Positions 1 to 41,005 of a DNA stretch of 41,005 bases are shown here, in pieces. How positions within the stretch are numbered: the stretch's first letter is position 1; every line of letters starts with the position of its first letter. The position numbers and the translations under genes are program-made. Source of the stretch: Candidatus Omnitrophota bacterium (GTDB lineage: Bacteria; Omnitrophota; Gorgyraeia; Gygaellales; Profunditerraquicolaceae); the NCBI GenBank assembly GCA_016212045.1, contig JACRHO010000114.1:1-41005 (forward strand), written 5' to 3'. Under the pieces are notes generated by a model, which saw nothing but the letters and a program-made list of their open reading frames with translations, was not told the origin of the DNA and did no database searches.

Positions 1-1545
1 CGCGGATAACGCATATTCTAACCTCGGAAAATATTTGATTATTAAATTCGTTAAAAAATTTAATTTGACTACCTGAAGCCAGTGCCGATATTCAACAGGC
101 AGGCCCGCTATATATGAATTTATTTCTTTAGAATCTAAATCAAAAAATAAATCTTTTTGGGAATCGTATATTTTTATAACTCTATTTATCTTTATTTTTT
201 TCTTATATTTGAGGTCAAATAAATATCCATCTTCATATTTGTGCCGCCTATTAAAAGGTTTGGCAACGATATTTTTGTTTACTGCCAGCTTAAAAACCGG
301 GATAGTTACCCAATGTTCAGAAAGAAATTCTATATGGCTAAAAGGACCGTATTTACTATATTGGTTACCTGAGACATAAATAATCTCATTGCCGTTATAG
401 TTATTCAATTCCTTATTATTCATTATGTTATGTATTACCCTTTGTTGCTGTAAATTCCAGGACCTCCAATGATTAGAAATACCAAGAATTGCAAAAATGA
501 ATATGCCCAGAAGCAAAATCCTTAATTTTTCTCTAACCGGCATGAGGAAAATAAGATATGTTAACAGAAATGAACCAAAGATGGTAGTTCTATTTCCCAG
601 ATTAAATGCTAACTCTGGATACATGCCTGTAAGGGAATATAGAAAAAATGCTGTAAGCAGTAAAATTACCATGCTAATGATAAGTTTGGAATCGTATCGG
701 TAATTAACCTTGCGATAGATTCTCTGGCAGATAAGTATAGCAATGAGGCCAATGATAAGCGAGACGCCGCTCATTTGTTTTAGCGCATAATAAATTTTTA
801 ACCAAAAGGCAGGCCCAAAAGCAGAATCAAAAAAGGTTATTATCTGGATGATGAAATTCTTTATTATCGAAAGAAAATTTATCTGTCCAGCCAACCTATC
901 TGTTCCCAACCCCAAGAATTTCGTCAGAAAAATATAATAAAGCGTAAATAATAAATTCGGAACCAAAATAACCAATGCTTGCTTAAGTTTTCTATTCAAG
1001 CTAAAGAGAAAAAAGAGACCTACGGCAATAGGCAGAGAGCCGTAAGATATAAATGAACCCATTAAAGAAAACAAGAAAGCCGGCACCAACCTATTATGAT
1101 ATCCCAAGTAATACGCATAGAGATAGAAAGCAAATGATAAGGTTAAATACTGCCCCATAAAGAAATATACAGTGGCATCGTGAGTAGGGAAAAATACAAA
1201 AAGAAATGAAATTAAAAATGCATCGCGAGGTTTTAAATAAATAGTAAAAAACTTCACGATGAGATAAAATGATATGATGACATAGAGAATTTTAGAAATA
1301 TTAACCGCGTTTTGGTTGTGAAGGCTAAACAGATGATACCAAGGATAATGGGTTATCTGTTCAAAGGGCGTATCAATAAAATAAAAAGGGCTATTAGTTG
1401 GTTTCTCCAGGCCTCTTGCCATTGCCATAGCCTCAAAGTCATCTGAAATAATACCCGTGTTCATAACTAAATAAACAATAAACGAAATATACAACAAAAA
1501 TAAAATTTTATCTTTTAGCCTATCCGCAGTTAAAATATTTATCAT
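1..1545 (-). CDS. Polytopic integral membrane protein, 3-prime end cut by the window edge (candidate GT-C-like glycosyltransferase or polymerase)
   Basis: Absent from the ORF track because it has no stop in the window. My own minus-strand translation in the frame of ATG 1545..1543 is stop-free down to base 1 (515 codons): MINILTADRLKDKILFLLYISFIVYLVMNTGIISDDFEAMAMARGLEKP... An alternative ATG lies at 1464. It has many hydrophobic helices followed by a polar tail (NNKELNNYNGNEIIYVSGNQYSKYGPFSH). An acidic SDDFE loop follows helix 1. The plus-strand ORF 497..703 lies inside it and is a shadow. Confidence 0.6.
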   Translation of the reverse strand, partial: MINILTADRLKDKILFLLYISFIVYLVMNTGIISDDFEAMAMARGLEKPTNSPFYFIDTPFEQITHYPWYHLFSLHNQNAVNISKILYVIISFYLIVKFFTIYLKPRDAFLISFLFVFFPTHDATVYFFMGQYLTLSFAFYLYAYYLGYHNRLVPAFLFSLMGSFISYGSLPIAVGLFFLFSLNRKLKQALVILVPNLLFTLYYIFLTKFLGLGTDRLAGQINFLSIIKNFIIQIITFFDSAFGPAFWLKIYYALKQMSGVSLIIGLIAILICQRIYRKVNYRYDSKLIISMVILLLTAFFLYSLTGMYPELAFNLGNRTTIFGSFLLTYLIFLMPVREKLRILLLGIFIFAILGISNHWRSWNLQQQRVIHNIMNNKELNNYNGNEIIYVSGNQYSKYGPFSHIEFLSEHWVTIPVFKLAVNKNIVAKPFNRRHKYEDGYLFDLKYKKKIKINRVIKIYDSQKDLFFDLDSKEINSYIAGLPVEYRHWLQVVKLNFLTNLIIKYFPRLEYALSA

Positions 1546-2671
1546 AAGTTATGCCCGGTAAAATATTCAACTTTGATAACAGCCGTATTGGCCATCGCAT
1601 CATTCTAATATAGCGGTAGTTAGAAGGATAATCTCTAAATGTTTTTGGCGCAAGCTTCATATAATTTTCAAACTCTGCCTGAGTAATGCCCAGCCGTTTG
1701 ATACACAGGTCTATTACTTTTGCGTCTTCAATAATATCAATCTTTTGCACTTCCTCTAATGCTATTCCTCTTGTCATTTGTCCAGAACGTATCAGGGCCG
1801 AATATATGAACTTCCTTCTGTCAATATTAAATTTAGTGCGGAAGACATAGGTCATCAAACTCTGATAAAGGTCATCATAATATTTTGACCCAGCATAAAC
1901 CCAACCGAGTTCTTTTGCAATAATCTTCTCTGCATCATTACGCACATAATCAACATAGTTAAGTATCGGAATGGCTATTATGTCTCTTATAAACGTATAA
2001 TAAAAAATATGCGAAATGCCTAAATTAAAACCCGGGTCAGCAGGCCGCCATTTCCGTAAGCGAACTGAGCCAAAAATCCGCTGTATGTTTTTTAAATAAG
2101 TCCCGTCTAAATAATTCCATTCTAAAGGAGATATACCTTCTGTACGAAATGAATATCCGGATATAATATATTTTATATTTTCCTTTGCGGCTGTGCCATA
2201 GAGCGCTGTTTCTATAGCTACATCCGTGCCCTCTTCTAAGTCCGGAGTGGATGCTTTTAAAAAAGCTATTTTAACATCCTTGGATTCTCTCCAGTCAGAG
2301 GTAACAGTTCTTAATTCCACGCCTAAAACTGCGGTGGCACGTTTTATGTTTTCGCCGGTTAGAGGATTTCCAAACCCATCATTAAAATGGACAGCCAACG
2401 GCCTTAACCCATATTGTTTGAGTAACCATAGCGTATAGGTGCTATCTCTGCCTCCGCTTACGCCTACGATGCAATCATATTTTCTGCCTTTGCCTTTGTT
2501 TTTTATCTTATCTAATAATCTCTTCAGCCTTAACTGACCTATCTCTCCCAAGGGATATGCCTTTTCCAGCTTATCGTGCATCTTACAGTAACTACATTCG
2601 CCTTGGGCATCAAATTTTGCGCCGGGAACAGAGCTATCAACTATACATCTATTACAGACCCTATATTCCAT
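1520..2671 (-). CDS. N-acetyl sugar amidotransferase (PP-loop ATP pyrophosphatase, WbpG/WbuX/LfnA-like; forms acetamidino groups)
   Basis: N-terminal zinc-ribbon cysteines CNRC...CSYC. PP-loop SGGRDS at 2441..2458 (verified by reverse-complementing the DNA). Length (383 aa) and C-terminal half are typical of the LPS N-acetyl sugar amidotransferase family. Confidence 0.8.
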   Translation of the reverse strand: MEYRVCNRCIVDSSVPGAKFDAQGECSYCKMHDKLEKAYPLGEIGQLRLKRLLDKIKNKGKGRKYDCIVGVSGGRDSTYTLWLLKQYGLRPLAVHFNDGFGNPLTGENIKRATAVLGVELRTVTSDWRESKDVKIAFLKASTPDLEEGTDVAIETALYGTAAKENIKYIISGYSFRTEGISPLEWNYLDGTYLKNIQRIFGSVRLRKWRPADPGFNLGISHIFYYTFIRDIIAIPILNYVDYVRNDAEKIIAKELGWVYAGSKYYDDLYQSLMTYVFRTKFNIDRRKFIYSALIRSGQMTRGIALEEVQKIDIIEDAKVIDLCIKRLGITQAEFENYMKLAPKTFRDYPSNYRYIRMMRWPIRLLSKLNILPGITYDKYFNCG

Positions 2672-3506
2672 TTTTATAATATCTTTTTTTCTTTAACATT
2701 TCACCTATCTGTGTGCCCTTCTCCTGCCTTTGAGGAATATCTATTTCTGTCGTGATTAACTCTCCGGCAAACTCATTGTAATGGCCATTGGCGATAACGC
2801 CGTCTTTACCAACCACCAAAGAACAACCTACCATTTTCTTACCTTCGTAAGGCCCTCCTACTATATAACCTACGCTGGTAGCGCTAGCTACAATAAGGTT
2901 GTATAAACTTGCTAATGTATGATATGGCTTAACCCATTTTTCGCCATAAGGGTTTGTTCCTTCTATAATATGATAATCCACCGTCCAGGAAGAAGGAGAA
3001 AGTATAATCTGAGCTCCCATACGCGCAAGAGTATGTCCTATTTCTAAAGCATCTATATAGTTATCAGCGCATATATTTACGCCTATCAAACCCCAGGGCG
3101 TAGCCACTACTGAAAGATGCCTGCCCACAGCATAAAAATCATGCTCCACAACCAGTAAATTAATCTTATGGTATTTAAGGATAATTTCGCCGGCAGAACT
3201 AATCAGTATGGCTGTATTATAGATACGGTGGTCTAATTTTTCAGTTAATCCTGCGCAGATAAAAATCGCATATTTTTTAGCAGATGCGCAGAGTATATTG
3301 CTATATGGCCCCGGAATGGGTTGTGCCTCTGTTTTGGCGCTGGGATGCGTCCATCCCAAATCTAAAGATTCCGGCAACAGACTTATAGCACATCCTTTTT
3401 CGCAGGCCTCTTTAATCATATTTTCTGCGCGGCCAAGGTTTCTCTGCGGCTCGCCGCCTTCAACTAATAATTGACATAATCCTACTTTAATCTTATTCGC
3501 CAACAT
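2661..3506 (-). CDS. Carbon-nitrogen hydrolase (nitrilase superfamily amidase/glutaminase-like)
   Basis: A Glu-Lys-Cys triad lies in canonical contexts and spacing: LLPES (E46), YHKINL (K114), VNICAD (C146). It overlaps the downstream amidotransferase start by 11 nt. Confidence 0.8.
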   Translation of the reverse strand: MLANKIKVGLCQLLVEGGEPQRNLGRAENMIKEACEKGCAISLLPESLDLGWTHPSAKTEAQPIPGPYSNILCASAKKYAIFICAGLTEKLDHRIYNTAILISSAGEIILKYHKINLLVVEHDFYAVGRHLSVVATPWGLIGVNICADNYIDALEIGHTLARMGAQIILSPSSWTVDYHIIEGTNPYGEKWVKPYHTLASLYNLIVASATSVGYIVGGPYEGKKMVGCSLVVGKDGVIANGHYNEFAGELITTEIDIPQRQEKGTQIGEMLKKKRYYKNGI

Positions 3507-4191
3507 TTAAAAACATACGTAATTTTATAATCTGACTTAAAAAAGAAACTATAGTAGTTATATTATTTACTTTGGAATCCCCGCTTATTCTAGGCCTAAT
3601 TTGTATAGGTATACTTTGAATTCTATAACCTGCCTTCTTGGCTTTAATGATTAACTCCATAACTATCATCCAAGCTCTACCATGCGACACCAATTTAACT
3701 TTATTAAGAATCTGCCTTCTAACCATAAATATCCCTTGGAAGCGAGGTAATTTTCCAAATAATATCGTAAGGATAAACCTTTCGGCCTTTGATAAGAACC
3801 TGCCTATTGGTGGTAGTTTTGTATCTGGGATATAACCGAGAATCAAATCAAAATTCTCTATATATGGTATAAATGCATTAATATTGGTGGCGGGAAATTG
3901 CCCATCTGCAGGAAAATAGGTAATGAATTCTCCCCTGGCATCACGAAAACCACTCCTGTATACCTCACCTAAACCAAAATTCTCTAAATGATGTATAGTC
4001 TTTATATAATTTAGTTCATTCTGCAAGACATCAGCCAGCATTGGCGTAGTGTCAGAGCTGCCATCATTAACGATTATTATTTCATAGGGCTTATTTAAGT
4101 CTTCAAGCAATGTATTTATGTCTCTGGTCACCCACATGAGGTTATTTTCTTCGTTGAAGGCCATTATTACTACGCTTAACAAAGGAATCAC
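3493..4191 (-). CDS. GT2 glycosyltransferase, polyprenyl-phosphate sugar synthase type (DPM1/ArnC/GtrB-like)
   Basis: Motifs: [30 protein letters not shown] (DxD-equivalent) and a late [11 protein letters not shown] motif typical of this GT2 subgroup. Confidence 0.75.
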
Positions 4192-5676: not shown

Positions 5677-6807
5677 CTATGTTCTCCTTCTGGAGCAAAG
5701 CCGAATAGCGTCAAGCAATACTTCGGCTATACGTCCTTGCTCCTCCATTTTAAGGGAGTTATATAAAGGTAATGTCAGGGAATTCCGAAAGGCGTAAAAT
5801 GCATTTTTAAAAGAATTTAATTTAAACTTAAAATTTTTCTTATAGAAATCTAATGAGGGTATACAATATCCGCCGATTTGCGTTTCTATACCCTTTTTTC
5901 GTAATAAATTTTTTAACTTATCTCTATTAATACTATTGGATAACAATAGACAGTATGTCTGATAAACGTGCCTGTAATCTTTGGGGCTTTGTGGCAATTT
6001 TAAATAACCAAGAATTTCCATTGGCCTAAGGAGCTGGTTATAATTTTGCGCCAAGGCGATCCTTTTCTTAATAGTATTATCAATTCGTTTAAACTGAGAC
6101 ATAAGAATTGCGGCCTGAATATCAGAGAGACGGAAATTATAACCGCAACCGATAAACTTATTATTACGGAGGCCATGATTGCGCAATAATTGTATTTTTT
6201 CGGCTATATGCCCAGAATCTGTAATTACGGCTCCACCTTCTCCGCAGGTAATAAGTTTACGCGGATGAAACGAGAATACTGCAACATCCCCAAAAGAACC
6301 AACCTTTTTTTCCCGGATTCTAGCACCCAAGGCACAGGCTGCATCCTCAATGACAGATAAATTATACCTCTTGGCAAGACGCATAATTTCAGGCAGATCA
6401 GCCGGGAGGCCAAATTCCGAAACAACCATTATTGCCTTCGTCTTCTTTGTGATTAACCTGCTGATGTTTCCCACGTCTATATTAAAAGTATCCAGCTTTA
6501 TATCGCAAAAAACGGGTTCTGCCCCTCCTAATATAATAGAATTAGCCGTTGCAGGAAATGTAAACGCCGGACATATAATCTCATCTTTGCTCTCTAAACC
6601 TAGCGCCTTTACTGAAGCAATCAATCCAGATGTCCCAGAATTAAACATAAAGGCATAACGGATTCTATTATATTGCCGCAACCTGCTTTCTATTAATTTA
6701 ACGTACCTACCTTGCGTAAGCCAGCCACTCCTCAATACCTTAATAGCCACATTTTCTTCTTTTTGCGTAATATCAGGTTTAGATAAAGGAAATTTTATAG
6801 TTCTCAT
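5677..6807 (-). CDS. DegT/DnrJ/EryC1/StrS-family PLP-dependent sugar aminotransferase
   Basis: Motifs: SGWLTQG, IEDAACALG, and the Schiff-base lysine motif FSFHPRKLITCGEGG, then LLRNHG. Confidence 0.85.
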   Translation of the reverse strand: MRTIKFPLSKPDITQKEENVAIKVLRSGWLTQGRYVKLIESRLRQYNRIRYAFMFNSGTSGLIASVKALGLESKDEIICPAFTFPATANSIILGGAEPVFCDIKLDTFNIDVGNISRLITKKTKAIMVVSEFGLPADLPEIMRLAKRYNLSVIEDAACALGARIREKKVGSFGDVAVFSFHPRKLITCGEGGAVITDSGHIAEKIQLLRNHGLRNNKFIGCGYNFRLSDIQAAILMSQFKRIDNTIKKRIALAQNYNQLLRPMEILGYLKLPQSPKDYRHVYQTYCLLLSNSINRDKLKNLLRKKGIETQIGGYCIPSLDFYKKNFKFKLNSFKNAFYAFRNSLTLPLYNSLKMEEQGRIAEVLLDAIRLCSRRRT

Positions 6808-6814
6808 ATAATAT

Positions 6815-8209
6815 TTAGCCGAATAGTAATCTTAATAAAACCTTGGCTCTTTTTAAAAGGCTAATCAAATCCTTTGGGCTCCTTATGGAGATTATCCTCC
6901 TGATGATATAAGATGGGTTTAAATAAAACTCTCTGTACGCCTGGTTAAAATATTGCGTAAGCTCCTTTGAGTTCACATCCCTAAGTTTTATATTGGCTTC
7001 ATTATACCTGCCAAAGTTCTCCCATCCTCCAGCGACAATCTCTAACAATTTTTTCCCTTTGGCCATATCCCAAACCTCTGAGCCAGGCAAAGGAACCAGA
7101 ACAGAAAACTGCGCATAATCAAGTTTTAGTCTTTTTGAGATATCAATAGTTTTTCTGATACTCTCTTTTGTATCATATGGTAATCCTATAATAAAAAGTC
7201 CGATTACCTCCATCCTGACTTCTTTTGCCCATTTAACCGCTCTGGTTATATCCTCTATTGTTTCGTTACGCTTGGCCAAACGTAGCACCGCATTATCCCC
7301 GGATTCAATGCCCAGCTGAATCCTGCGGCAGCCTGAATCCTGCATTATTTTAAGAAGTGGTTTTGTTAAATGGCCTGCGCGGGTAAGGCAATCCCACTCT
7401 AAACGCAGATTCCGTTTAATCAATGCTTCACAAATCTCTGCAGTCCTTTGATTATCTAAAGTGAATGTATCGTCATGAAAGGTAAACCTTTTTATTTTGT
7501 AATCAAGTTTTAATTTTTCTATCTCACCTATTATGTTGCCTACGCTTCTTTTGCGGTAACTTCTCTGATGTATAGTGTGCGCAGCGCAATATGTGCACTG
7601 ATAAGGACAACCCCTTGTGCTGATGAGCCCTACTACTGTGCCTACATGTTCATTTCCGTATTTTTCAATAGGCAAATCCTGATAAAGGGGATAGGGGAAG
7701 ATATCTATATTTTGCGCTAATTGCCGGGCCGGATTTTTTATAATACTGCCTCCTCTTTTATAAAATATTCCCTTAATTTTATCGATGCTCTCTCCGCGCA
7801 CAAGCTCTAGCATCGTAAACTCTCCCTCTCCATAAACGAGGATATCTATGTTACTGTTGGATATTGTCTCTTCTGGCAAAGCCGAGGCATGTATTCCTCC
7901 AATTATAACCTTAATATCGGGATCTATCTTTTTTGCAATTTCTGCAACTTTAAATGCCTCCTTAATCTGGACAGTGGTAGCGGAAAGCCCTATCCAACGC
8001 GGCGATTCCTGTCTAATTATCCTACCTACGTCATTTAAACTATCTGTAGAAAACATTAAATCTACTAACTTTACGCTACAGCCAGCCTCCTTTAAAAAAC
8101 TGGCAATATAGGCTATACCCAAAGGCGGCACGCCAAAATCAAGCGCCTTGATATCTATCCTTCCATAACTTTTGCCATACGGCATGGATAATAGTAGTAC
8201 ATCGCTCAT
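6815..8209 (-). CDS. B12-binding-domain radical SAM enzyme (class B type), copy 1
   Basis: N-terminal Rossmann-like B12-binding region (IGLSATT...VIIGGIHAS...VYGEGE). Cluster motif CPYQCTYC at 7586..7609, verified on the DNA. Downstream IQLGIESG. Confidence 0.85.
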   Translation of the reverse strand: MSDVLLLSMPYGKSYGRIDIKALDFGVPPLGIAYIASFLKEAGCSVKLVDLMFSTDSLNDVGRIIRQESPRWIGLSATTVQIKEAFKVAEIAKKIDPDIKVIIGGIHASALPEETISNSNIDILVYGEGEFTMLELVRGESIDKIKGIFYKRGGSIIKNPARQLAQNIDIFPYPLYQDLPIEKYGNEHVGTVVGLISTRGCPYQCTYCAAHTIHQRSYRKRSVGNIIGEIEKLKLDYKIKRFTFHDDTFTLDNQRTAEICEALIKRNLRLEWDCLTRAGHLTKPLLKIMQDSGCRRIQLGIESGDNAVLRLAKRNETIEDITRAVKWAKEVRMEVIGLFIIGLPYDTKESIRKTIDISKRLKLDYAQFSVLVPLPGSEVWDMAKGKKLLEIVAGGWENFGRYNEANIKLRDVNSKELTQYFNQAYREFYLNPSYIIRRIISIRSPKDLISLLKRAKVLLRLLFG

Positions 8210-11566: not shown

Positions 11567-11623
11567 ATTAAAATCCCCTAACTAATTAAAATACATCTAG
11601 TTATAAATAAAATACTTCCGTCT

Positions 11624-11651
11624 ATTATACTGGTCATCATTAACAAATCAA
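11624..11651 (-). promoter_or_regulatory. Candidate internal sigma70-type promoter (TTGATT-N16-TATAAT) in the largest intergenic gap
   Basis: On the minus strand, TTGATT lies at 11651..11646 and TATAAT at 11629..11624. Both sit in the 88-nt gap upstream of the radical SAM gene that starts at 11566. In AT-rich DNA such matches arise easily by chance. Confidence 0.25.
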
Positions 11652-11654
11652 ACA

Positions 11655-14321: not shown

Positions 14322-14341
14322 GATGCTATGTTTTTATTATG

Positions 14342-14361: not shown

Positions 14362-14383
14362 GGAAGAAATATTAATGCTATTC

Positions 14384-28959: not shown

Positions 28960-28960
28960 C

Positions 28961-32387: not shown

Positions 32388-32395
32388 CTGTCCTC

Positions 32396-34115: not shown

Positions 34116-34136
34116 CTTTGACTCCTTTGTAATTTA

Positions 34137-34931
34137 CTATCTAATCTCACCTAAATATCTCAGTAATATTCTCTCGGAACTAAGTTGGAATGTCGGGTAA
34201 ACAGCAGAAACCTTCTTGTTAGATATTTTACCTATATTATAGAGGTATCTGCCGAATTTTACTTTCTTTCCTAGAATTTTTACTGTTTCGCAAAGTAATA
34301 TATTTTTAGAAGAGGCGAGATTATATATCCCCATAAGATCTTTTTCTATGGACAACTTTATGAATTCTAATACATCCTCATACCTAATATAATTGAACAT
34401 GGAGCGGGAGTTAAGACCGACTGCCGGAAATTTATCTTTAATTATTCTGGAAAGCGTATTCTGTCTTGTATATCGGCCAAGCAGACTCGTTGGTCTTAAG
34501 ATCAAATAATTATTACAATATTTTTTTATAATTGCTTCAGAAATTATCTTGGTTATCGCATATATCCCACACAGGGAATCTATTTTTATAACTTCGTTTT
34601 CTAAATGAATTTTGCCATTTTTAGGATAGACATCTGCCGATGAAATAAATATAAATTTCTTGTGGGGTATCTCAACGAGCTTTTGGGTTAGGTATACATT
34701 ATCACTAAAATAGGAAAATAAATTATCTGAATTAATTTCTCTGTTCGTATTAAAGGCGCAATGGATTATTATACTCAGGCCACTGCGCCTGAATTTTTTA
34801 AAATAACGGTTGGAGGAACTACGCGATAACCCATAGCCTCCTATTTCTTCATGAATATATCTGCCTAATCCGCTTAAAACTCCGGTCGTCAGTATATTCT
34901 CGGCTGTCCTCGTACTAGCTAAATTAGTCAT
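34137..34931 (-). CDS. Short SDR-family NAD(P)-dependent sugar reductase/epimerase-like protein
   Basis: Degenerate Rossmann motif TTGVLSGLG. YAITK (YxxxK) follows FISSADVY. 264 aa. Confidence 0.5.
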   Translation of the reverse strand: MTNLASTRTAENILTTGVLSGLGRYIHEEIGGYGLSRSSSNRYFKKFRRSGLSIIIHCAFNTNREINSDNLFSYFSDNVYLTQKLVEIPHKKFIFISSADVYPKNGKIHLENEVIKIDSLCGIYAITKIISEAIIKKYCNNYLILRPTSLLGRYTRQNTLSRIIKDKFPAVGLNSRSMFNYIRYEDVLEFIKLSIEKDLMGIYNLASSKNILLCETVKILGKKVKFGRYLYNIGKISNKKVSAVYPTFQLSSERILLRYLGEIR

Positions 34932-35886
34932 GCTTTTTTATATTATCTATATACCACTGCATAGTCTTTCTTATTCCATCGTCCAGGGAAACTTTAGGGG
35001 CCCATCCAAAATCCATATTGGCCCTGCCGGTATCAAGACACACCTTCGTCGGTATATTTGGTTTAGACAAATCGTATTCTATCCTTATCGCTTTTCCAGA
35101 GTGGTCGATAATCTTTTGCACCAGTTCTTTTATAGATATGGGGCTTCCGTATCCTATATTATATAAACCGAATTGCTTCTTTTGTTTGTCTATGGCCATT
35201 TCAACAAAATTAACTAAATCGTCAATATAAAGCAGATCTCTTGCTTCTTCGCCTGCGCCCCAAACTATAATCTTGTCGCCGTTTTTAGCAGTCATCACTT
35301 TAGTTAAAGTAGCGGCAAAAACATGTGATTTCTCCAATTCGAATTTATCATAAGGGCCATAAATATTAGAATGCCTGATTACGGTATATTTGGTATTTCC
35401 TATTCTGGAATAGAACTCACACATCTTCTCAATATAAACCTTGGTCCAACCTACGCCGAAATAACTCGGAAAAATTTCTTGGTTAGCATCAAAGTCGGTT
35501 TCTTTTATAGGGGTATCGCTGGATTGATACATCACCGTACAACTAAAAAATATTACCTGCGAAACCTGATATTCATGCGCTGCCCTGAATATAAGAGAAT
35601 TCATTACGCTATTATCGGTAACATGATAGTATGGTTTATTAATAATATCCTTTGCTCCGGAAGTAGTTGCGGCTGCCTGAATGACGATATCCATCCCTTT
35701 TACTGCCCTGGCAACATCCTCTTTATCCGTGAGGTCTGTTTTTAGCATTTTAATTTTAGGATGTTCTAATGGCGGTGATTCAAGATGTGTCCCGTAAACA
35801 TCAAAATCATCCCTATCGGCAAAATACTCTGCCATATTCCTGCCGATAAATCCCGTAGCGCCGCATATCAAAAGTTTTCTTTTCAT
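34924..35886 (-). CDS. Extended SDR NAD-dependent epimerase/dehydratase family protein with a non-canonical active-site motif
   Basis: Motifs: CGATGFIGRN, FFSCTVMY, RHSNIYGPYD. The expected YxxxK position reads VGWTK (35440..35463 covers YFGVGWTK). Confidence 0.7.
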   Translation of the reverse strand: MKRKLLICGATGFIGRNMAEYFADRDDFDVYGTHLESPPLEHPKIKMLKTDLTDKEDVARAVKGMDIVIQAAATTSGAKDIINKPYYHVTDNSVMNSLIFRAAHEYQVSQVIFFSCTVMYQSSDTPIKETDFDANQEIFPSYFGVGWTKVYIEKMCEFYSRIGNTKYTVIRHSNIYGPYDKFELEKSHVFAATLTKVMTAKNGDKIIVWGAGEEARDLLYIDDLVNFVEMAIDKQKKQFGLYNIGYGSPISIKELVQKIIDHSGKAIRIEYDLSKPNIPTKVCLDTGRANMDFGWAPKVSLDDGIRKTMQWYIDNIKKHD

Positions 35887-36878
35887 AGGCTATTTATTTT
35901 TCTATCCTTATCGATAAAAACATTGTACCTTTTATAGGTTATGTCCTTATGCTGCAAATACCAATCCATGGTCTCCTTAATTCCTTCTTCGATAGATATG
36001 CTTGGCCTAAAACCCAAAGATTCGGCTCTGGATACATCCATCAGCCTCTTTCTGTCGCCCGAGGGCTTAGATATATCCCAAACTATCTTTGGTTTAACCT
36101 TCATATTGCCTACGATAATTTCAACAATATCCTTAATACTTACTTCCTTACCGCTGCCAAGGTTAACAGGCAGCGAAGGCATCTTTTCTAAAATTAAAAA
36201 CATACCTCTGGCCACATCTCTGGCGTGAATAAAGTCCCTGATCTGCGAGCCATCGCCCCAGACTACCAGAGGGTTTTCCCCGTCTAAGGCGCGCTTAATC
36301 AAGGAGGGTATAACCATGGCATTCTGCGGGTCAAAATTGTCATACGGCCCATAGACATTAGCAGGCCGGACAATAGCGATATCATTCCAGCCATATTCAA
36401 TCTTATATGCCTCTGCCTGAAGTTCTCCCATACGCTTGGCCCAACCGGCAAACCTGTCATTTTGCGAAGGAAATGTGCTCCAGACATCATCCTCATGAAA
36501 AATTTCGGCTGGTGAATAAACTCCGATGCTGCTAGTATAAAGATACTTCTTGGCCTTGGATAGGCGCGCTGCCTCCATCATATTGGTGTTGAACATAATT
36601 GTTGGCACAAAAAAACTGGCCGGCTTTTTTGCGGTCATCGCCGGAGAACCTTTAATGCCGGCAAGCTGAAAGACGTAATCCATCCCCTCGCATGCCTTAA
36701 GGCAATTCTCTAAATGAGACAAATCCAGACGCATAAATTCTGCCTGCGGGTGGGCGCGGGAAGGGTCATCCAAGGAAGCAATCCTTACTCTTGAGCCCTC
36801 TTTTAATAATATTTCAACCAAGGGCATTCCTATCAGACCTGTCCCGCCGGTTACGAGAATTTTTTTAGCTTTATACAT
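35883..36878 (-). CDS. Extended SDR NAD-dependent epimerase/dehydratase family protein, paralog of 34924..35886, with a non-canonical active-site motif
   Basis: Motifs: VTGGTGLIG, YTSSIGVY, RPANVYGPYD, VWGDGSQIRDFIH. The expected YxxxK position reads AGWAK (36435..36452 covers FAGWAK). Confidence 0.75.
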   Translation of the reverse strand: MYKAKKILVTGGTGLIGMPLVEILLKEGSRVRIASLDDPSRAHPQAEFMRLDLSHLENCLKACEGMDYVFQLAGIKGSPAMTAKKPASFFVPTIMFNTNMMEAARLSKAKKYLYTSSIGVYSPAEIFHEDDVWSTFPSQNDRFAGWAKRMGELQAEAYKIEYGWNDIAIVRPANVYGPYDNFDPQNAMVIPSLIKRALDGENPLVVWGDGSQIRDFIHARDVARGMFLILEKMPSLPVNLGSGKEVSIKDIVEIIVGNMKVKPKIVWDISKPSGDRKRLMDVSRAESLGFRPSISIEEGIKETMDWYLQHKDITYKRYNVFIDKDRKINSL

Positions 36879-36879
36879 T

Positions 36880-37872
36880 TTATTTGATTACCGTTGATAC
36901 CTTCCAGGGGCAGCGCGACAGCATATCCCTCCAATAATCCAGCAGATCTTTAAGCGTCTTCTCTAGCGGTATCTGCGGTTCCCAGCCGGTTTCATTCTTA
37001 AATTTATCTATACACGGTATCTGTAAGGTTACATCCGAAGGCCTAATCAGGCGGGGGTCAACCTTGATTTTAAATTTTTTCTTAGAAAAAGAAAGCATTA
37101 TATCTAAGGCTTCTTTTATCGTCATAGTGCGTATCCCTCCGATATTATAAACTTCGCCGGCCCTACATTTATTTATCATTATCCAGTAAGCCCTAACCGC
37201 ATCGCGCACATCGCAAAAAGTGCGCACGGATTTCAAATTACCCACATATATTACAGGTTCTTGCAAGCCCAACTCACCAGCGGCAGCCTGTTTAGCAAAA
37301 AACGACATCGCGAAAATATCTCCGCGCTTTGGGCCGGTATGCGTGAACATCCGGGTACGTATAGTCCTTATTTTATAAGACAACCAATATTGCAAAGCAA
37401 GCATGTCTTCGGCAACTTTACTGACTGCATAGGGAGACGCGGGCTTAAAAGAACATGTTTCTTTTATAGGTATATCTGCCTCACTTACCTGGCCGTAAAC
37501 TTCAGAGGATGAGCAAATGTGGACAATAGGATCAATTCCCGTAATTCTGACTGCCTCAAGGAGGTTAGCTGTTCCCAGTACATTTGTCGATAAAGTCTGT
37601 AAGGGAGAATTGAAACTCGTCAAGACATAACTCTGGGCAGCCAGATGGAAGATAACTTCTGGTTTTATCGCTTCAATATGCCGGATTAAAGAACTTAAAT
37701 CCAAAAGGTCTCCTTCCACCAAAGTTATTTTATTGTATATTTTACTTAAGTTGTCTCTCGGGCTCCTCCATCTGCATATTCCAAAAATTTCATGCTTTTC
37801 TTTAAGATTCACTATATATTCTGCTAAGTGGCTTCCGACAAAACCTGTTATGCCGGTAATTAAAATTTTCAT
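36880..37872 (-). CDS. gmd: GDP-mannose 4,6-dehydratase family SDR (short Gmd / Rmd / heptose DmhA-like)
   Basis: Motifs: ITGITGFVGSHLAEY, CRWRSPR, FHLAAQSYV, GTANLLEA, CSSSEVYG, SPYAVSK, THTGPKRG, VGNLKSVRTFCDVRD, EVYNIGG. The dehydratase versus 4-reductase (Rmd) assignment is not certain. Confidence 0.7.
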   Translation of the reverse strand: MKILITGITGFVGSHLAEYIVNLKEKHEIFGICRWRSPRDNLSKIYNKITLVEGDLLDLSSLIRHIEAIKPEVIFHLAAQSYVLTSFNSPLQTLSTNVLGTANLLEAVRITGIDPIVHICSSSEVYGQVSEADIPIKETCSFKPASPYAVSKVAEDMLALQYWLSYKIRTIRTRMFTHTGPKRGDIFAMSFFAKQAAAGELGLQEPVIYVGNLKSVRTFCDVRDAVRAYWIMINKCRAGEVYNIGGIRTMTIKEALDIMLSFSKKKFKIKVDPRLIRPSDVTLQIPCIDKFKNETGWEPQIPLEKTLKDLLDYWRDMLSRCPWKVSTVIK

Positions 37873-37899
37873 TAAGAAAACCCCCTCTTATTGTCTCAG

Positions 37900-38943
37900 C
37901 TAAAATGGGCCCTTAAACTCAACCTCTTCTATTTTTAATTTTGTATTCGGCCGCCAATGTTTTTTGCCCGGACGGCAAATCTGATACGCTTTCATGGCTA
38001 TGCTTTGAGCATTTGGATAAAAATACTTTTCTAGCGCGGGCGTAGTAGGACAAGTAGTATGGGCAAAGCCCATGCGCTGGGCAACGAATCCTTTTAGCTT
38101 ACTCTCAACCAGCAGCCGACTGATTATCTCTGCGCCTAGACCACAGGGAACCCAGGCATTATCTACGATAATCAACCTACCTGTTTTCTTGACTGATCTG
38201 GCAATTGTATCTATGTCCAAGGGGGCCAAACTTACAGGATCGATTACCTCTGCTCTTATGCCTGTTTCCTTGAATAAATAAATACTAGCCCTTAGACATT
38301 CAATCGCCATTTGAGAAATTCCTACCAAGGTAATATCTCGCCCCTTGGAAAGAATGCGGGCCTTACCAAAAGCCGTGGTATAGGGCTTAGCAGGGACATA
38401 ACTTTTCTGATAATACAAAAGTCTATGTTCTATAAAGATAACCGGATCATTATCCCTGATGGCATTAATCAGGCATCCCTTGGCATCATAAGGCGTGGAA
38501 GGAGCAATAATCTTTAATCCGGGGATATTCATAAATAAAGGATATATACTCTGGGAATGTTGAGGCCCCTGCCCCCAACTTTTACCGATAATAGAACGGA
38601 TGACAATGGGCACGGATACGCTTCCTCCAAACATATAACGCATCTTAGCAACCATATTTACTAATTGATTCATCGCCAAAAGCATAAAATCCATCCGGAT
38701 ATGGATATGTATCGGCCGCAATCCAGCAAGGGCAGCACCTATTGCTACACCGGTCATCGCATCCTCTGAAAGAGGAGTATCAAAAACCCGCGTAGGCCCG
38801 AATTTAGCCGCCAGGCCCTTGGTTGTCCCCAGAATAGCCTTGGGATCATCTACGCCTTGGCCTAAAACAATTACTGAAGGATCAATTGACATCTCCTGAT
38901 CAGTTGCTTCCCTGACTGCCTCTGGATAAGTTAAAATCCGCAT
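37900..38943 (-). CDS. TPP-dependent 2-oxoacid dehydrogenase E1 component, beta subunit (transketolase-like pyrimidine-binding plus C-terminal domains)
   Basis: Motifs: YPEAVREA...DPSVIVLGQGV, RVFDTPLSEDAMTGVAIGAALAGLRPI, GPQHSQS, PVIFIEH. 347 aa, typical of E1-beta. Confidence 0.85.
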   Translation of the reverse strand: MRILTYPEAVREATDQEMSIDPSVIVLGQGVDDPKAILGTTKGLAAKFGPTRVFDTPLSEDAMTGVAIGAALAGLRPIHIHIRMDFMLLAMNQLVNMVAKMRYMFGGSVSVPIVIRSIIGKSWGQGPQHSQSIYPLFMNIPGLKIIAPSTPYDAKGCLINAIRDNDPVIFIEHRLLYYQKSYVPAKPYTTAFGKARILSKGRDITLVGISQMAIECLRASIYLFKETGIRAEVIDPVSLAPLDIDTIARSVKKTGRLIIVDNAWVPCGLGAEIISRLLVESKLKGFVAQRMGFAHTTCPTTPALEKYFYPNAQSIAMKAYQICRPGKKHWRPNTKLKIEEVEFKGPF

Positions 38944-39926
38944 TATAATGATTTTGCAAAAACGTCCTGATAAATTTTCTCTTTTGAGGGAAAAGGGCTT
39001 TTCTCGGCAAAGGAGAATGCCTCTTCTATCTCTACCTGAACCTTGGACTCTATTCTTTCCCTAGTCGCTGTACTTAAAAGTAAGCCTATTTCTTTTAATG
39101 GATCATTCTTTTTCCAACAAGAAACCTCATCTTCGCTGCGGTATCCTAAGTCAAAATCGTCATTAGGCCCAACGTGTTCTTTCCAGCGACAGGTAAGACA
39201 CTCTAAAAATGCAGGCCCCTTGCCCTGTCTTATCTTGGCAATATATTTATTAGCGGCTCTATAAATTTTAAATATATCGCCATCTCCTATCCTTTCCGAC
39301 GGCATCCCGTACGTCCTGGCGCGTATAAAGATGTTGTCGGAGTGATGGCGTTTTAAATGGTGCGAATGAATCGCGTAGGTATTATTTTCGCAGATAAATA
39401 ATATCGGTAATTTCTTAAGGGCGGCAAAGTTAAGGCTTTCGTGAAAAGCACCTTCGTCAACTGCGCCATCCCCAAAAAAAGCCGCTACCAAAGAATTGGA
39501 TTTTCTGTATCTTAGAGCATAGGCGTAACCGGTGGCCACGGGAATCATTGTACCTACGATTGCCGATGCTCCCATTATCCCGTGATTAGTATCAATAAGG
39601 TGCATCGAGCCACCTTTGCCTTTGGCACAACCTGTAACCTTGCCATAAAGTTCGGCGATCATCTTTTTCAAATCGCCTCCTTTGGCAAGATACATCGCAT
39701 GGCCCCGGTAAGTCCCGAATACCTTATCCTTAAGTCTTAGCGCTTCGCAGATACCCACAGAAACAGCTTCTTGGCCTATAGATAAATGAACCGGGCTTTT
39801 AATCTTGTCTGTAGGATAAATTCGGGCTATTTCTTCTTCGACTTTACGAATCCTATAAAGCGACCTATAGAATCTTTCCGTAAGCCCTAAGTTAATTTTG
39901 GATATCTTACTCATTTGTCTTGCCAT
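38943..39926 (-). CDS. TPP-dependent 2-oxoacid dehydrogenase E1 component, alpha subunit
   Basis: Motifs: YRGHAMYLAKGG, AELYGKVTGCAKGKGGSMHL, and the TPP-binding motif GDGAVDEGAFHESLNFAALKKLPILFICENN at 39381..39473. A 1-nt overlap with the beta subunit gene. Confidence 0.85.
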   Translation of the reverse strand: MARQMSKISKINLGLTERFYRSLYRIRKVEEEIARIYPTDKIKSPVHLSIGQEAVSVGICEALRLKDKVFGTYRGHAMYLAKGGDLKKMIAELYGKVTGCAKGKGGSMHLIDTNHGIMGASAIVGTMIPVATGYAYALRYRKSNSLVAAFFGDGAVDEGAFHESLNFAALKKLPILFICENNTYAIHSHHLKRHHSDNIFIRARTYGMPSERIGDGDIFKIYRAANKYIAKIRQGKGPAFLECLTCRWKEHVGPNDDFDLGYRSEDEVSCWKKNDPLKEIGLLLSTATRERIESKVQVEIEEAFSFAEKSPFPSKEKIYQDVFAKSL

Positions 39927-40845
39927 GTTGTAAATACCATTGATAAGTTTGAATTATGCCTTCTTTTAACGGCATCTTCGCCTTCCATCCCAGGACCGTA
40001 ATCTTAGAGATATCCAAGAGTTTCCTGGGGATGCCGTCAGGATAAGAGGTATCAAAAAGGATATCCCCGTCATAACCAACTATATTTTTAATTATCAATG
40101 CTAATTCCTTTATAGTTATATCCTGCCCGGTGCCTATATTTATAGGCATAGAGCTATCGTAACTTAACATCAAAAATAAACTGGCATCTGCAATATCTTG
40201 TACATAAATAAATTCTCTACGCTGTTGCCCAGAACCCCAGATAGTTACGGCAGGATGTTTTTTTAGCTTTGCCTCTTGGAATTTCCTTATCAGGGCCGGA
40301 ATCACATGCGAATCCTTAGAATTGAAATTGTCTCCCGGGCCGTAAGCATTCGCGGGTATAGCCGAGATAAAATTCACTTTATATTCTTTATTGTAGGCCT
40401 GGCACATTTTTATCCCGGCAATCTTAGCGATGGCGTAAGATTCATTGGTCGGCTCCAGCGGAGCGGATAATAAGTATTCTTCTTTCATCGGCTGAAGGGC
40501 CTGGCGAGGGTAACTACAGGCACTGCCAAAAAATAACAACTTTTTTACTCCCGAGATATAAGCACTATGAATAACGTTATTCTGAATTTGGGTATTTTCG
40601 TAAATAAACTGCGCCGGTAAGGATATATTGGTCTCGATGCCGCCAACCCTTGCCGCAGCCAAAATGACATAATCGGGTTTCTCTTTTTTAAAAAAATCCT
40701 CTACTTTCTGCTGGCGTAATAAATCCAGTTCCTTGCGGGACCTGGTAAGCAGATTGAGGTACCCTAATTCTCTTAGCCTATCCGTAATGGCAGAGCCGAT
40801 TAACCCGCCGTGCCCGGCAATATATATTTTTGCGTTATTATCCAT
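39907..40845 (-). CDS. fcl: GDP-L-fucose synthase (GDP-4-keto-6-deoxy-D-mannose 3,5-epimerase/4-reductase; the ColC-type colitose synthase is homologous)
   Basis: Collinear with my memory of E. coli Fcl/WcaG: IAGHGGLIGSAI, LAAARVGGI, PAQFIYEN, LLFFGSACSYP, EPTNESYAIAKIAGIK, SHVIPALIRKF, VTIWGSGQQRREF, DGIPRKLLD, YQWY. Confidence 0.9.
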   Translation of the reverse strand: MDNNAKIYIAGHGGLIGSAITDRLRELGYLNLLTRSRKELDLLRQQKVEDFFKKEKPDYVILAAARVGGIETNISLPAQFIYENTQIQNNVIHSAYISGVKKLLFFGSACSYPRQALQPMKEEYLLSAPLEPTNESYAIAKIAGIKMCQAYNKEYKVNFISAIPANAYGPGDNFNSKDSHVIPALIRKFQEAKLKKHPAVTIWGSGQQRREFIYVQDIADASLFLMLSYDSSMPINIGTGQDITIKELALIIKNIVGYDGDILFDTSYPDGIPRKLLDISKITVLGWKAKMPLKEGIIQTYQWYLQHGKTNE

Positions 40846-40854
40846 AGGTATACG

Positions 40855-41005
40855 TCAATCCTTTGCTAACGTCCTGCAAATATGCTTATTGTTGTAGATT
40901 TCCTCGAATTGCTGCAATTCTTCTAAACCCAGCCAGAATTCCTTGATATTATAAGCACCTACACGCCACTTTTTTAAAACGAGCCTATTAATCAGTTGGG
41001 GCATA
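40855..41005 (-). CDS. Unidentified ORF at the right window edge (C-terminal fragment of a larger gene, or a 49-codon ORF)
   Basis: My translation of the minus strand from 41004 gives MPQLINRLVLKKWRVGAYNIKEFWLGLEELQQFEEIYNNKHICRTLAKD, with the stop at 40857..40855. It lies 9 nt upstream of fcl. No family recognised. The reading frame may continue beyond the window. Confidence 0.3.
   Translation of the reverse strand, partial: MPQLINRLVLKKWRVGAYNIKEFWLGLEELQQFEEIYNNKHICRTLAKD

Follow-up and report, generated by a model that had tools for sequence, protein, structure and literature searches.

A one-strand surface-glycan locus of Candidatus Omnitrophota with a putative branched-deoxysugar cassette that recurs across bacterial phyla

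Introduction

Wzx/Wzy-type loci for O-antigens and capsules, among them the very long, one-strand Leptospira rfb locus, are co-directional blocks of nucleotide-sugar and glycosyltransferase genes with a Wzx flippase, low-GC membrane genes and a mosaic composition. To our knowledge, classical loci of this kind do not have four GT-C glycosyltransferases, three GT2 enzymes resembling polyprenyl-phosphate-sugar synthases and four B12-binding radical S-adenosylmethionine (SAM) enzymes, all of which occur in the DNA analyzed here. This DNA, which we call the window, is the entire deposited contig JACRHO010000114.1 (41005 bp) of a Candidatus Omnitrophota metagenome-assembled genome (MAG; GCA_016212045.1). 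Omnitrophota are thought to live attached to other cells or to prey on them. Their complete genomes carry hypervariable, strain-variable polysaccharide cassettes, with one example of 25 kb (bioRxiv 10.64898/2026.06.07.730766). Our main subject is a group of genes at positions 28961-40845 of the window, module 1, whose closest described counterparts are two kinds of enzymes that depend on thiamine diphosphate (ThDP). In yersiniose biosynthesis, the ThDP enzyme YerE takes a 3,6-dideoxy-4-keto sugar as its acceptor (PMC9306805). The pairs Plm8/9, Pau11/12 and AviB1/B2, which resemble the E1 component of pyruvate dehydrogenase (PDH), are assigned to place a pyruvate-derived two-carbon branch on C-4 of 4-keto deoxysugars (PMC4802897, PMC4753412).

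Our analysis makes it likely that the window is a piece of a larger, tightly packed, modular one-strand locus that builds a cell-envelope glycoconjugate, in which module 1 would make a C-4-branched 3,6-dideoxy sugar and GT-C enzymes would complete assembly on the outer face of the membrane.

Results

We assigned the functions of the window genes from homology, and the gene names below should be read as predictions of that kind. Module 1 consists of the following genes, listed from the right edge of the window inward.

39907..40845, minus strand: g37, GDP-fucose-synthase-like short-chain dehydrogenase/reductase (SDR) of the 3,5-epimerase/4-reductase type; YAIAK motif; NCBIfam GDPFucSynFcl 452.6 bits, cut-off 500
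38943..39926, minus strand: g36, PDH-type E1 alpha; PF00676 at 2.7e-64; ThDP motif GDG-X26-NN
37900..38943, minus strand: g35, E1 beta, with transketolase pyrimidine-binding and C-terminal domains
36880..37872, minus strand: g34, GDP-mannose-4,6-dehydratase (GMD)-like SDR; PF16363 at 1e-74; YAVSK motif; NCBIfam gmd 167 bits, below cut-off
35883..36878, minus strand: g33, Fcl-like SDR without the catalytic Tyr (AGWAK), from domain and motif
34924..35886, minus strand: g32, Fcl-like SDR without the catalytic Tyr (VGWTK), from domain and motif
34137..34931, minus strand: g31, short SDR-fold protein of 264 aa without GxxGxxG; orthologues in loci L003, L010, L013, L014 and L022
33123..34115, minus strand: g30, HddA-like GHMP sugar kinase; NCBIfam 145 bits, cut-off 600
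32396..33133, minus strand: g29, guanylyltransferase-like sugar-1-phosphate nucleotidyltransferase (Pfam/NCBIfam)
31707..32387, minus strand: g28, small soluble GT2 resembling polyprenyl-phosphate hexose synthases; best matches AglJ and dolichyl-phosphate hexose transferase
30169..31710, minus strand: g27, class-B (B12-binding) radical SAM enzyme, CPFQCGFC; start/stop overlaps with g26 and g28
28961..30172, minus strand: g26, DegT-fold sugar 3-dehydratase of the ColD/E1-RfbH type, with His for the catalytic Lys and a Cys-rich insert

The E1 alpha and beta genes are adjacent, keep an intact ThDP motif and lie amid deoxysugar genes, as AviB-type pairs do, and Pfam searches of all 37 proteins found no E2 or E3 gene in the window. 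Their best NCBIfam matches are PDH E1 alpha (313 bits) and beta (276 bits), both below cut-off. The DegT-fold protein g26 aligns end to end with the cytidine diphosphate (CDP)-sugar 3-dehydrase E1 (3bcx) and with ColD (2gms), and its best NCBIfam match is RfbH. It reads VAHMIT at the position of the catalytic Lys, which the other three DegT-fold proteins (g07, g17 and g19) keep; this His rules out g26 as a fourth aminotransferase. A Cys-rich insert (CKCNTC...C, window 29400-29500) lies where the E1 dehydrase has its iron-sulfur motif. In a yersiniose-type pathway, g34 would serve as the 4,6-dehydratase and g26 as the pyridoxamine-phosphate-dependent, His-type 3-dehydratase. The activation genes look like those for guanosine diphosphate (GDP) sugars, not CDP sugars, and we found in the window neither a single-chain ThDP flavoenzyme of the YerE/acetolactate-synthase type, nor an E3 reductase, nor CDP-glucose genes for activation with DdhA/DdhD. 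With activation genes, 4,6-dehydratase, His-type dehydratase, E1 pair and SDRs, all functions needed for a yersiniose-like sugar appear to be present, with a different carboligase.

Module 1 has three Fcl-like SDRs (g37, g33 and g32), and two of them are without the catalytic Tyr. Both Tyr-less proteins are 66-75% identical across phyla, and xGW[AT]K replaces YxxxK in all orthologues of the two proteins examined (13/13 and 17/17). The short form of g31 is likewise retained in Brocadia, Nitrospirota and Omnitrophota loci, which argues that g31 is not a pseudogene.

We then compared module 1 with other genomes, taking one genome per GTDB species, which yielded E1 alpha homologues of 45-71% identity in 80 loci. 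Assigned by record titles, these loci come from more than 15 phyla, among them Omnitrophota, Nitrospirota, Planctomycetota (including Kuenenia), Verrucomicrobiota, Cyanobacteria, Acidobacteriota and Chloroflexota, and further Cloacimonadota, Poribacteria, Patescibacteria, several proteobacterial classes and Bacillota. E1 beta adjoins E1 alpha in 77 of the 80. Neighbors were counted within 10 kb on each side of E1 alpha, and the counts are lower bounds since many contigs are short: a DegT-fold gene was present in at least 60 loci, a GHMP kinase in at least 48, an Fcl-like SDR of the g37 type in at least 44, a B12-radical SAM gene in at least 41 and a nucleotidyltransferase in at least 31. Nearly all homologue matches (97%) are co-directional with E1 alpha. 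When six further loci were added (86 in all), 64 of the 67 DegT-fold genes in loci with E1 beta had His at the Lys position; each of the three without it is an additional copy that lies about 5 kb away from E1 beta. That these genes stay together in so many phyla is our strongest reason to think that the product of the sugar 3-dehydratase is the substrate of the E1 pair. E2, E3 and lipoyl genes were found in none of the cassette loci that we read gene by gene.

The common architecture consists of NTP-transferase, GHMP kinase, Fcl-like SDR, E1 alpha, E1 beta, His-type DegT and B12-radical SAM genes. The radical SAM enzymes of this common type form a conserved family that, at 45% identity or more, clusters into groups of 34 and 6 loci. 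The architecture of the window has the extra SDRs g31-g34, in the order g37-g36-g35-g34-g33-g31-g32-g30-g26-g29, and its gene set recurs at 50-79% identity in Omnitrophota, Nitrospirota/Thermodesulfovibrionia, Brocadiales and Magnetomicrobium. Orthologues of g34 are 75-79% identical in Omnitrophota, Nitrospirota and Brocadiales loci, and orthologues of the GT2 g28 (47-59%) stand beside the cassette in eight other loci.

Two anammox genomes indicate where the product may be used. In Ca. Brocadia (locus L003, positions 1-20960, GCA_030409075, JAMXDF010000003; also locus L004), the cassette comes immediately after flgG-flgK, flagellin, FliW and CsrA, with no change of strand, and contains E1 alpha/beta, a GMD-like SDR, B12-radical SAM, GHMP kinase and His-type DegT genes, which suggests that flagellin in anammox bacteria may be glycosylated with the cassette sugar. 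In a Ca. Kuenenia stuttgartiensis MAG (locus L070, 5894-17764), a compact cassette lies beside a 656-aa GT41-like protein and a methyltransferase. The S-layer protein of Kuenenia is heavily O-glycosylated, and its O-glycan holds a 174.09-Da residue that was provisionally assigned as a dimethylated deoxyhexose (PMC5088730). By our arithmetic, a yersiniose residue (C8H14O4) has the same mass. We offer the identity of this residue with a yersiniose-type sugar as a lead, not as a finding. A description of the E1/His-dehydratase/radical SAM cassette, or of radical-SAM-rich Omnitrophota glycan loci, was not found in the open-access literature subset.

The window also encodes the enzymes that would assemble the glycan. 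They are given below together with the flippase.

28276..28959, minus strand: g25, small soluble GT2 resembling polyprenyl-phosphate sugar synthases; AglJ 115 bits, and an ArnC-type match
26999..28279, minus strand: g24, polytopic GT-C (PMT_2) glycosyltransferase (Pfam), with about 8 transmembrane (TM) segments
25969..27042, minus strand: g23, GT2 of 357 aa with a C-terminal TM segment, from domain and TM prediction
24570..25976, minus strand: g22, polytopic GT-C (PMT_2) glycosyltransferase (Pfam), about 9 TM segments
23344..24573, minus strand: g21, GT4 (GT-B) glycosyltransferase (Pfam)
20237..21349, minus strand: g18, GT-B glycosyltransferase (Pfam)
12813..14321, minus strand: g12, Wzx/MOP flippase; PF01943 and PF13440; about 13 TM segments
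11655..12809, minus strand: g11, TuaH-like GT-B glycosyltransferase (Pfam/NCBIfam)
8219..10129, minus strand: g09, GT-C-fold membrane protein of 636 aa, from predicted fold
3493..4191, minus strand: g04, small soluble GT2; best NCBIfam match an ArnC-type undecaprenyl-phosphate sugar transferase
1..1545, minus strand: g01, GT-C-fold membrane glycosyltransferase of an Omnitrophota-wide family, from predicted fold; cut a few codons before its end

The three small GT2 proteins g04, g25 and g28 are soluble, about 230 aa long and best matched, below cut-off, by AglJ, dolichyl-phosphate hexose transferase or ArnC. All four polytopic proteins besides Wzx are GT-C-like: g22 and g24 by Pfam, and g01 and g09 by predicted fold. 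The model of g01 (pLDDT 89, pTM 0.91) has its best fold matches in ALG9, STT3, ArnT and PglB, and that of g09 (pLDDT 68, pTM 0.74) in AglB, ALG12, ArnT, AftA and Pmt4; for both models, all top Foldseek matches are GT-C structures, with probability 1.0. Searches of PDB sequences gave no match for either protein. We found 171 homologues of g01, mostly named Omnitrophota, one of which is labeled 'glucosyltransferase domain-containing' (GtrII-type), and an invariant S-D-D in the first loop. The family of g09 is very small (10 close homologues among 5.8 billion clustered proteins, with a weak link to one PMT/PMT_2 protein), and g09 has no Pfam or NCBIfam match. A role of g01 or g09 as Wzy or ligase is unsupported by these models, whose fold matches are GT-C only.

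The remaining genes would modify further sugars. Several have orthologues in L088, a 264-kb contig of the Joint Genome Institute (JGI) that is syntenic with g17...g01 at 48-76% identity.

22461..23402, minus strand: g20, SAM methyltransferase (Pfam)
21346..22461, minus strand: g19, DegT aminotransferase with Lys kept, from domain and residue
19094..20236, minus strand: g17, DegT aminotransferase with Lys kept; 71% orthologue in L088
17532..19097, minus strand: g16, class-B radical SAM enzyme, CPFSCSYC, from domain and motif
16811..17539, minus strand: g15, transglutaminase-core-like protein with an N-terminal TM segment; weak match at 2.4e-4; 48% orthologue in L088 (1239-1946)
15201..16835, minus strand: g14, fusion of a GFO/IDH/MocA sugar 3-dehydrogenase-like domain and a hexapeptide N-acetyltransferase of the NeuD/PglB/VioB family
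14384..15133, minus strand: g13, SAM methyltransferase (Pfam)
10145..11566, minus strand: g10, class-B radical SAM enzyme, CPCKCIFC, from domain and motif
6815..8209, minus strand: g08, class-B radical SAM enzyme, CPYQCTYC, from domain and motif
5677..6807, minus strand: g07, DegT aminotransferase with Lys kept, from domain and residue
4714..5676, minus strand: g06, NDP-sugar 4,6-dehydratase-like SDR; 76% orthologue in L088
4188..4724, minus strand: g05, hexapeptide acetyltransferase (Pfam/NCBIfam)
2661..3506, minus strand: g03, carbon-nitrogen (CN) hydrolase of the nitrilase superfamily, the proposed ammonia-supplying partner of g02
1520..2671, minus strand: g02, N-acetyl sugar amidotransferase of the WbuX family with the PP-loop SGGRDS; TIGR03573 218.8 bits, cut-off 203.2

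The sole window protein above an NCBIfam cut-off is the WbuX-type enzyme g02; the dehydrogenase domain of g14, for example, reaches 172 bits as UDP-GlcNAc 3-dehydrogenase, with a cut-off of 450. The usual partners of WbuX are the HisH/HisF-like proteins WbuY and WbuZ, and NadE obtains its ammonia through a nitrilase-superfamily domain. In the window no HisH/HisF-like WbuY or WbuZ was found, and the neighbor of g02 is the CN-hydrolase g03. A pair of the same kind, a WbuX-type and a nitrilase-superfamily protein, recurs at 8015-9993 of L090 (Omnitrophica GCA_023818895, JAMWCX010000001, 732 kb).

All four radical SAM enzymes (g08, g10, g16 and g27) combine a B12-binding N-terminal domain with the CxxxCxxC core. 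Identity among the four is 24-30%, no radical SAM enzyme of the fetched loci exceeds 32% identity to any of them, and none reached a characterized subfamily in NCBIfam (HpnJ, BchE, GenK, Fom3 and others; HpnJ, for example, at 228 with a cut-off of 578). At 1-261 of L090 we observed the tail of a 903-aa product with B12-binding, radical SAM and GT4/GT1 domains, of which only the tail lies inside the fetched locus. With a class-B radical SAM enzyme and a glycosyltransferase joined in one chain, this product suggests that radical SAM enzymes may act directly in glycan assembly.

This inventory largely agrees with the original prediction, which had been made from the sequence without database searches. 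Pfam and NCBIfam return the same numbers of B12-type radical SAM enzymes (four, with CxxxCxxC in each), SDRs (six), SAM methyltransferases (two), hexapeptide domains (two), GT-B enzymes (three) and flippases (one Wzx), and they bear out the ThDP E1 pair, the pair of PP-loop protein (WbuX, SGGRDS) and nitrilase (CN-hydrolase), and the roughly four GT-C-like proteins, two by PMT_2 and two by predicted fold. Four GT2 enzymes were found where five had been counted. Four DegT-fold enzymes had been listed, and that number stands with the qualification that g26 is a His-type 3-dehydratase rather than an aminotransferase. The functions said to be missing are indeed absent from the Pfam output for the window, namely an initiating phosphoglycosyltransferase, Wzz, Wza/Wzc, an ABC exporter, UDP-glucose dehydrogenase and GmhA/B. 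The predicted range of modified sugars is also matched by genes: amino sugars by three DegT enzymes that keep the catalytic Lys, acetamidino sugars by WbuX (218.8 bits, above the NCBIfam cut-off of 203.2), deoxy sugars by two 4,6-dehydratase-like SDRs and the His-type 3-dehydratase, C-branched sugars by the E1 alpha/beta pair with its intact ThDP motif and no E2/E3 (with precedent in PMC4802897 and PMC4753412), and methylated sugars by two SAM methyltransferases and four class-B radical SAM enzymes. The proposed use of polyprenyl-phosphate donors on the outer face is in line with three small soluble GT2 enzymes (best matches AglJ, dolichyl-phosphate hexose transferase or ArnC) and four GT-C-fold proteins. 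The enzyme multiplicity had been called unusual, which is correct relative to textbook O-antigen loci but apparently not relative to Omnitrophota loci, since L001 packs six radical SAM genes into 21 kb; loci of this size and richness look normal in the phylum. Recent gene duplication is ruled out as the source of this multiplicity by paralogues that are only 24-46% identical. The paralogues are old (24-30% for radical SAM, 30-46% for DegT), and the multiplicity thus reflects different enzymes.

Finally, we examined the layout of the locus. The window is tiled by 37 minus-strand open reading frames (ORFs) plus the 49-codon C-terminal tail of a 38th at the right edge, with a coding fraction of 0.989 and an overall GC content of 38.1%, in keeping with the earlier claim that all genes are co-directional on the minus strand. 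Plus-strand ORFs of at least 100 aa occurred only nested inside minus-strand genes with strong Pfam matches. The probability of finding 38 of 38 genes on one strand is about 2e-5 even at 75% strand bias (our arithmetic), so the run is not due to chance; the layout is still what operon-like glycan loci look like. Start/stop overlaps of 4 nt are found in the junction table at 4188 (GTGA), 19094, 21346, 24570, 30169, 31707 and 35883. An eighth, at 28276, depends on taking the ATG at 28279 as the start, versus the TTG at 28330 of the longest ORF. The coordinates of the eight overlaps first proposed are thus right, with the reservations that 4188 is GTGA and not ATGA and that 28276 holds only with the ATG start. 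In total, 22 of 37 junctions overlap and 34 of 37 are 27 nt or shorter. Exactly three gaps exceed 60 nt, as had been stated: 14322-14383 (62 nt), 15134-15200 (67 nt) and the largest, given here with the gene tail at the right edge.

11567..11654, minus strand: largest intergenic gap, 88 nt, with a single promoter-like site at 11651-11624 (TTGATT-16-TATAAT)
40858..41005, minus strand: C-terminal tail (49 aa) of an upstream gene cut by the contig end, from translation

None of the three gaps has a terminator-like site. Pattern scans of the window gave promoter- and terminator-like sites in numbers equal to those in shuffled sequence, so these scans say nothing on operon structure. No Rfam families, tRNAs or meaningful repeats were found in the window. 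Per-gene GC content is a mosaic, with 0.33-0.35 in membrane genes (GT-C, Wzx) and some glycosyltransferase genes versus 0.41-0.445 in the E1 cassette, which fits a locus assembled from modules of different history.

Both edges cut coding sequence, as predicted. On the right, the 49-aa tail had no Pfam match and no homologue in the 86 loci fetched. On the left, g01 is truncated a few codons before its end (515 aa present, versus 502-524 aa in homologues), and NCBI annotates it as 'partial'. Three window proteins are 100% identical to NCBI proteins of a Candidatus Omnitrophota MAG (locus tags HZA27_03725 and HZA27_03765), which rules out a Leptospira rfb locus, a candidate suggested by the one-strand layout and the GC content of about 38%. 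Two Logan contigs of run SRR12113407, an independent assembly, match the window at 99.9%; both lie inside it, and one of them (L091) starts exactly at window base 41005, the same break as in the deposited contig. A break at the same base in two assemblies is the pattern expected from an assembly-graph branch, such as a strain-variable junction or a repeat. The exact 40-mer from the right end was not present in JGI metagenome contigs. In L090 the genes for a CN-hydrolase, a WbuX-like protein and a g01 homologue again stand together and are followed, without a change of strand, by a further radical SAM enzyme, a methyltransferase, ATP sulfurylase and NeuB. The stretch 15020-21542 of L090, downstream of its g01 homologue, holds ATP sulfurylase, an inositol-phosphatase-like gene, a PglD-like acetyltransferase and NeuB, a hint that related clusters might make sulfated sugars and nonulosonic acids. 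The synteny with L088 and L090 indicates that the modules are conserved in Omnitrophota and that the cluster runs on past g01. Syntenic Omnitrophota loci extend past both window ends. The unit is thus very probably larger than the window, in agreement with the original prediction.

Discussion

The locus is a surface-glycan biosynthesis locus of a known kind, and its size and one-strand layout are ordinary for the phylum. From the observed gene order, domain content, catalytic-residue states, folds and cross-genome conservation we infer the substrates, products and acceptor of the following scheme. Module 1 would produce a nucleotide-activated, probably GDP-linked, 3,6-dideoxy sugar with a two-carbon branch at C-4. 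The GHMP kinase and the nucleotidyltransferase would activate the sugar, the GMD-like SDR would carry out 4,6-dehydration, and the His-type DegT-fold enzyme g26 would remove the 3-OH. The E1 alpha/beta pair with ThDP would then decarboxylate pyruvate and transfer the remaining two carbons to the 4-keto group, Fcl-like SDRs would reduce or epimerize the product, and the small GT2 g28 would load it onto polyprenyl phosphate. A 2,3-diamino sugar might be made by the dehydrogenase-acetyltransferase fusion g14 with the aminotransferases g17/g19, and a 4-amino-deoxy N-acetyl sugar by g06, g07 and g05, with g04 loading it onto polyprenyl phosphate. WbuX (g02), with g03 as a nitrilase-type ammonia donor, would introduce an acetamidino group. 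Further tailoring would fall to the two SAM methyltransferases and the four divergent B12-radical SAM enzymes, the latter most likely by C-methylation. The GT-B enzymes and the GT2 g23 would build a lipid-linked oligosaccharide on the cytoplasmic face and Wzx would flip it, after which the GT-C proteins g01, g09, g22 and g24 would attach sugars singly on the outer face, taking them from polyprenyl-phosphate donors.

Several observations weigh against this scheme. The Foldseek TM-scores of g01 and g09 are just 0.3-0.43. An initiating phosphoglycosyltransferase, Wzy, Wzz, a ligase, an oligosaccharyltransferase and an exporter are not in the window; Wzy_C, Wzz, Bac_transf and Glycos_transf_4 had no Pfam match among the 37 proteins, and Wzy/Wzz may lie outside the contig. 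A small flippase of the GtrA or ArnE/F type was not found either, there being no small polytopic ORF among the 37 genes. The window also holds no E3-type reductase for g26, with its E1-like Cys cluster. A role of g32 and g33 as reductases is doubtful because the catalytic Tyr of SDRs is not present. The four radical SAM enzymes match no characterized family above cut-off, and they fall outside the cassette-linked radical SAM family. Finally, the specific NCBIfam matches, except WbuX, are below the curated cut-offs, so the sugar identities and the nucleotide carrier are guesses.

We considered four other explanations. The locus could glycosylate a protein (an S-layer protein, pilin, flagellin or giant surface protein) instead of making an O-antigen or capsule, with the GT-C enzymes acting on Ser/Thr or on protein-bound glycans. 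This would agree with the absence of Wzy, Wzz, WaaL and an exporter from the window, with PMT_2 in two GT-C proteins and with STT3, PglB, AglB and Pmt4 among the fold matches of g01/g09, as well as with the position of the Ca. Brocadia cassette directly after flagellin, FliW and CsrA and that of the Kuenenia cassette beside a GT41-like protein in an organism whose S-layer is heavily O-glycosylated (PMC5088730). However, Wzx, three GT-B enzymes and the larger GT2 point to a lipid-linked oligosaccharide, g01 and g09 have no WWDYG-type oligosaccharyltransferase motif, the window holds no candidate gene for an acceptor protein, and Foldseek cannot separate GT-C subfamilies at TM-scores of about 0.35. 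We therefore treat protein glycosylation as a serious possibility that we nevertheless lean against. The 41 kb could also be several adjacent, independently transcribed glycan operons that share an orientation. Three gaps of 62-88 nt, one of them with the TTGATT-16-TATAAT site at 11651-11624, the GC mosaic (0.33-0.35 versus 0.41-0.445) and the fact that module 1 stands alone in other phyla would suit such an arrangement, but 34 of 37 junctions are 27 nt or shorter and 22 overlap, the three gaps lack a terminator-like site, site counts equal those of shuffles, and functionally linked genes are spread over the proposed borders. On balance, separate operons seem unlikely to us, though not implausible.

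The remaining two explanations are far less probable. With B12-radical SAM, DegT, GFO/IDH/MocA, N-methyltransferase and glycosyltransferase genes, the window recalls gentamicin-type pathways (PMC4340712), and PDH-E1-like sugar-branching enzymes so far come from actinomycete antibiotics (PMC4802897), as would be expected of a secondary-metabolite cluster for an aminoglycoside-like compound or a glycolipid rather than an envelope glycan. Wzx, three GT2 enzymes resembling polyprenyl-phosphate-sugar synthases and four GT-C proteins are, however, envelope machinery, no aglycone, cyclitol, resistance or regulator genes are present, and the syntenic loci bear NeuB, polysaccharide deacetylase and flagellar genes, which makes a secondary metabolite highly improbable. 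Equally remote is the idea that E1 alpha/beta is an ordinary pyruvate/acetoin dehydrogenase component that ended up here by chance and takes no part in sugar synthesis. The best NCBIfam matches are indeed PDH E1 alpha/beta (313 and 276 bits) and JGI names the homologues 'pyruvate/acetoin dehydrogenase', yet neither score reaches its cut-off, E2, E3 and lipoyl genes are missing from the window as well as from the loci that we read gene by gene, and the linkage to the His-type 3-dehydratase, GHMP kinase and Fcl-like SDRs is conserved over more than 15 phyla.

A cell-envelope glycoconjugate with a C-4-branched dideoxy sugar from module 1 is thus the reading we prefer. More tentatively, we propose an unrecognized route to C-branched, possibly C-methylated, dideoxy sugars that is shared by many phyla, in which a stand-alone PDH-E1 alpha/beta carboligase and a His-type 3-dehydratase would be obligatory partners, usually joined by a dedicated B12-radical SAM enzyme. 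Its product might be placed on flagellins, S-layers or lipopolysaccharide in Omnitrophota, anammox Planctomycetes, Nitrospirota, cyanobacteria and others and could explain the 174.09-Da residue of Kuenenia, and the four orphan radical SAM enzymes of the window might form a new glycan-tailoring set. We regard this broader proposal as less likely than not and hold it with less confidence than the reading of the window itself.

Size and one-strand layout alone are not news, since large surface-glycan loci are expected in any bacterium. The linkage over more than 15 phyla, by contrast, predicts a concrete route to a carbon-branched deoxysugar with enzymes other than those of the textbook yersiniose pathway, and it offers a specific candidate for the unassigned anammox S-layer sugar and for flagellin glycosylation in Brocadia. 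B12-radical SAM enzymes are apparently routine in the glycan loci of uncultured anaerobes and would be a source of radical chemistry on carbohydrates that is still unexplored. In Omnitrophota, contact with hosts and escape from phages probably hinge on the surface glycan. The E1/His-dehydratase/radical SAM cassette and the orphan radical SAM enzymes merit experimental follow-up.

Compared with known systems, the window shares with Wzx/Wzy loci, including Leptospira rfb, the co-directional block, Wzx, the low-GC membrane genes and the mosaic, and differs from them in having no Wzy, Wzz, initiating transferase or ligase. Its g06-g07-g05-g04 genes together with g01 would follow the same logic as ArnA/B/C/T and GtrA/B/C (dehydratase-type SDR, aminotransferase, N-acyl transfer, GT2 loading, GT-C), whereas the matches are far below the equivalog cut-offs, no GtrA- or ArnE/F-like flippase is present and four GT-C proteins share one locus. 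The combination of g14 with g17/g19 may resemble the WbpB/WbpE/WbpD 2,3-diacetamido route. Relative to WbuX/WbuY/WbuZ, g02 passes the WbuX cut-off and has the PP-loop, while a separate CN-hydrolase replaces WbuY/WbuZ; this pairing mirrors the domain logic of glutamine-dependent NAD synthetase, in that a nitrilase-superfamily protein could supply the ammonia. The radical SAM enzymes have the N-terminal B12-binding domain and CxxxCxxC core of GenK, GenD1 and Fom3 and, like these, lie among sugar-modifying genes (PMC4340712, PMC9204698), but none of the four reaches any family cut-off. The described Omnitrophota cassettes (bioRxiv 10.64898/2026.06.07.730766) belong to the same phylum and are the same kind of locus; their description does not cover gene content, E1 or radical SAM features, and the locus in the window is at least 41 kb.

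The closest comparisons remain those for module 1. The yersiniose A pathway (ddhA-D, yerE and yerF in Yersinia and Pseudomonas O-antigen loci) proceeds through the same steps of activation, 4,6-dehydration, His-type 3-deoxygenation, ThDP-dependent two-carbon addition and reduction (PMC9306805, PMC4509608), and it also sits in a cell-surface glycan locus. In the window, however, the carboligase is of the two-subunit PDH-E1 type and not the single-chain flavoprotein YerE, activation appears to be GDP-type (GHMP kinase, ManC/HddC-like transferase, GMD-like and Fcl-like SDRs) rather than through CDP-glucose, and there is no DdhD/E3 reductase, while Tyr-less SDRs and a B12-radical SAM enzyme are added to the set. 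With AviB1/B2, Plm8/9 and Pau11/12, likened here by description, module 1 shares the adjacent E1 alpha/beta genes without E2/E3 amid deoxysugar genes. Those pairs act on 2,6-dideoxy or trideoxy hexoses or pentoses linked to deoxythymidine diphosphate (dTDP) in the secondary metabolism of Streptomyces, whereas the pair described here lies in an envelope glycan locus of uncultured phyla of the Gram-negative type.

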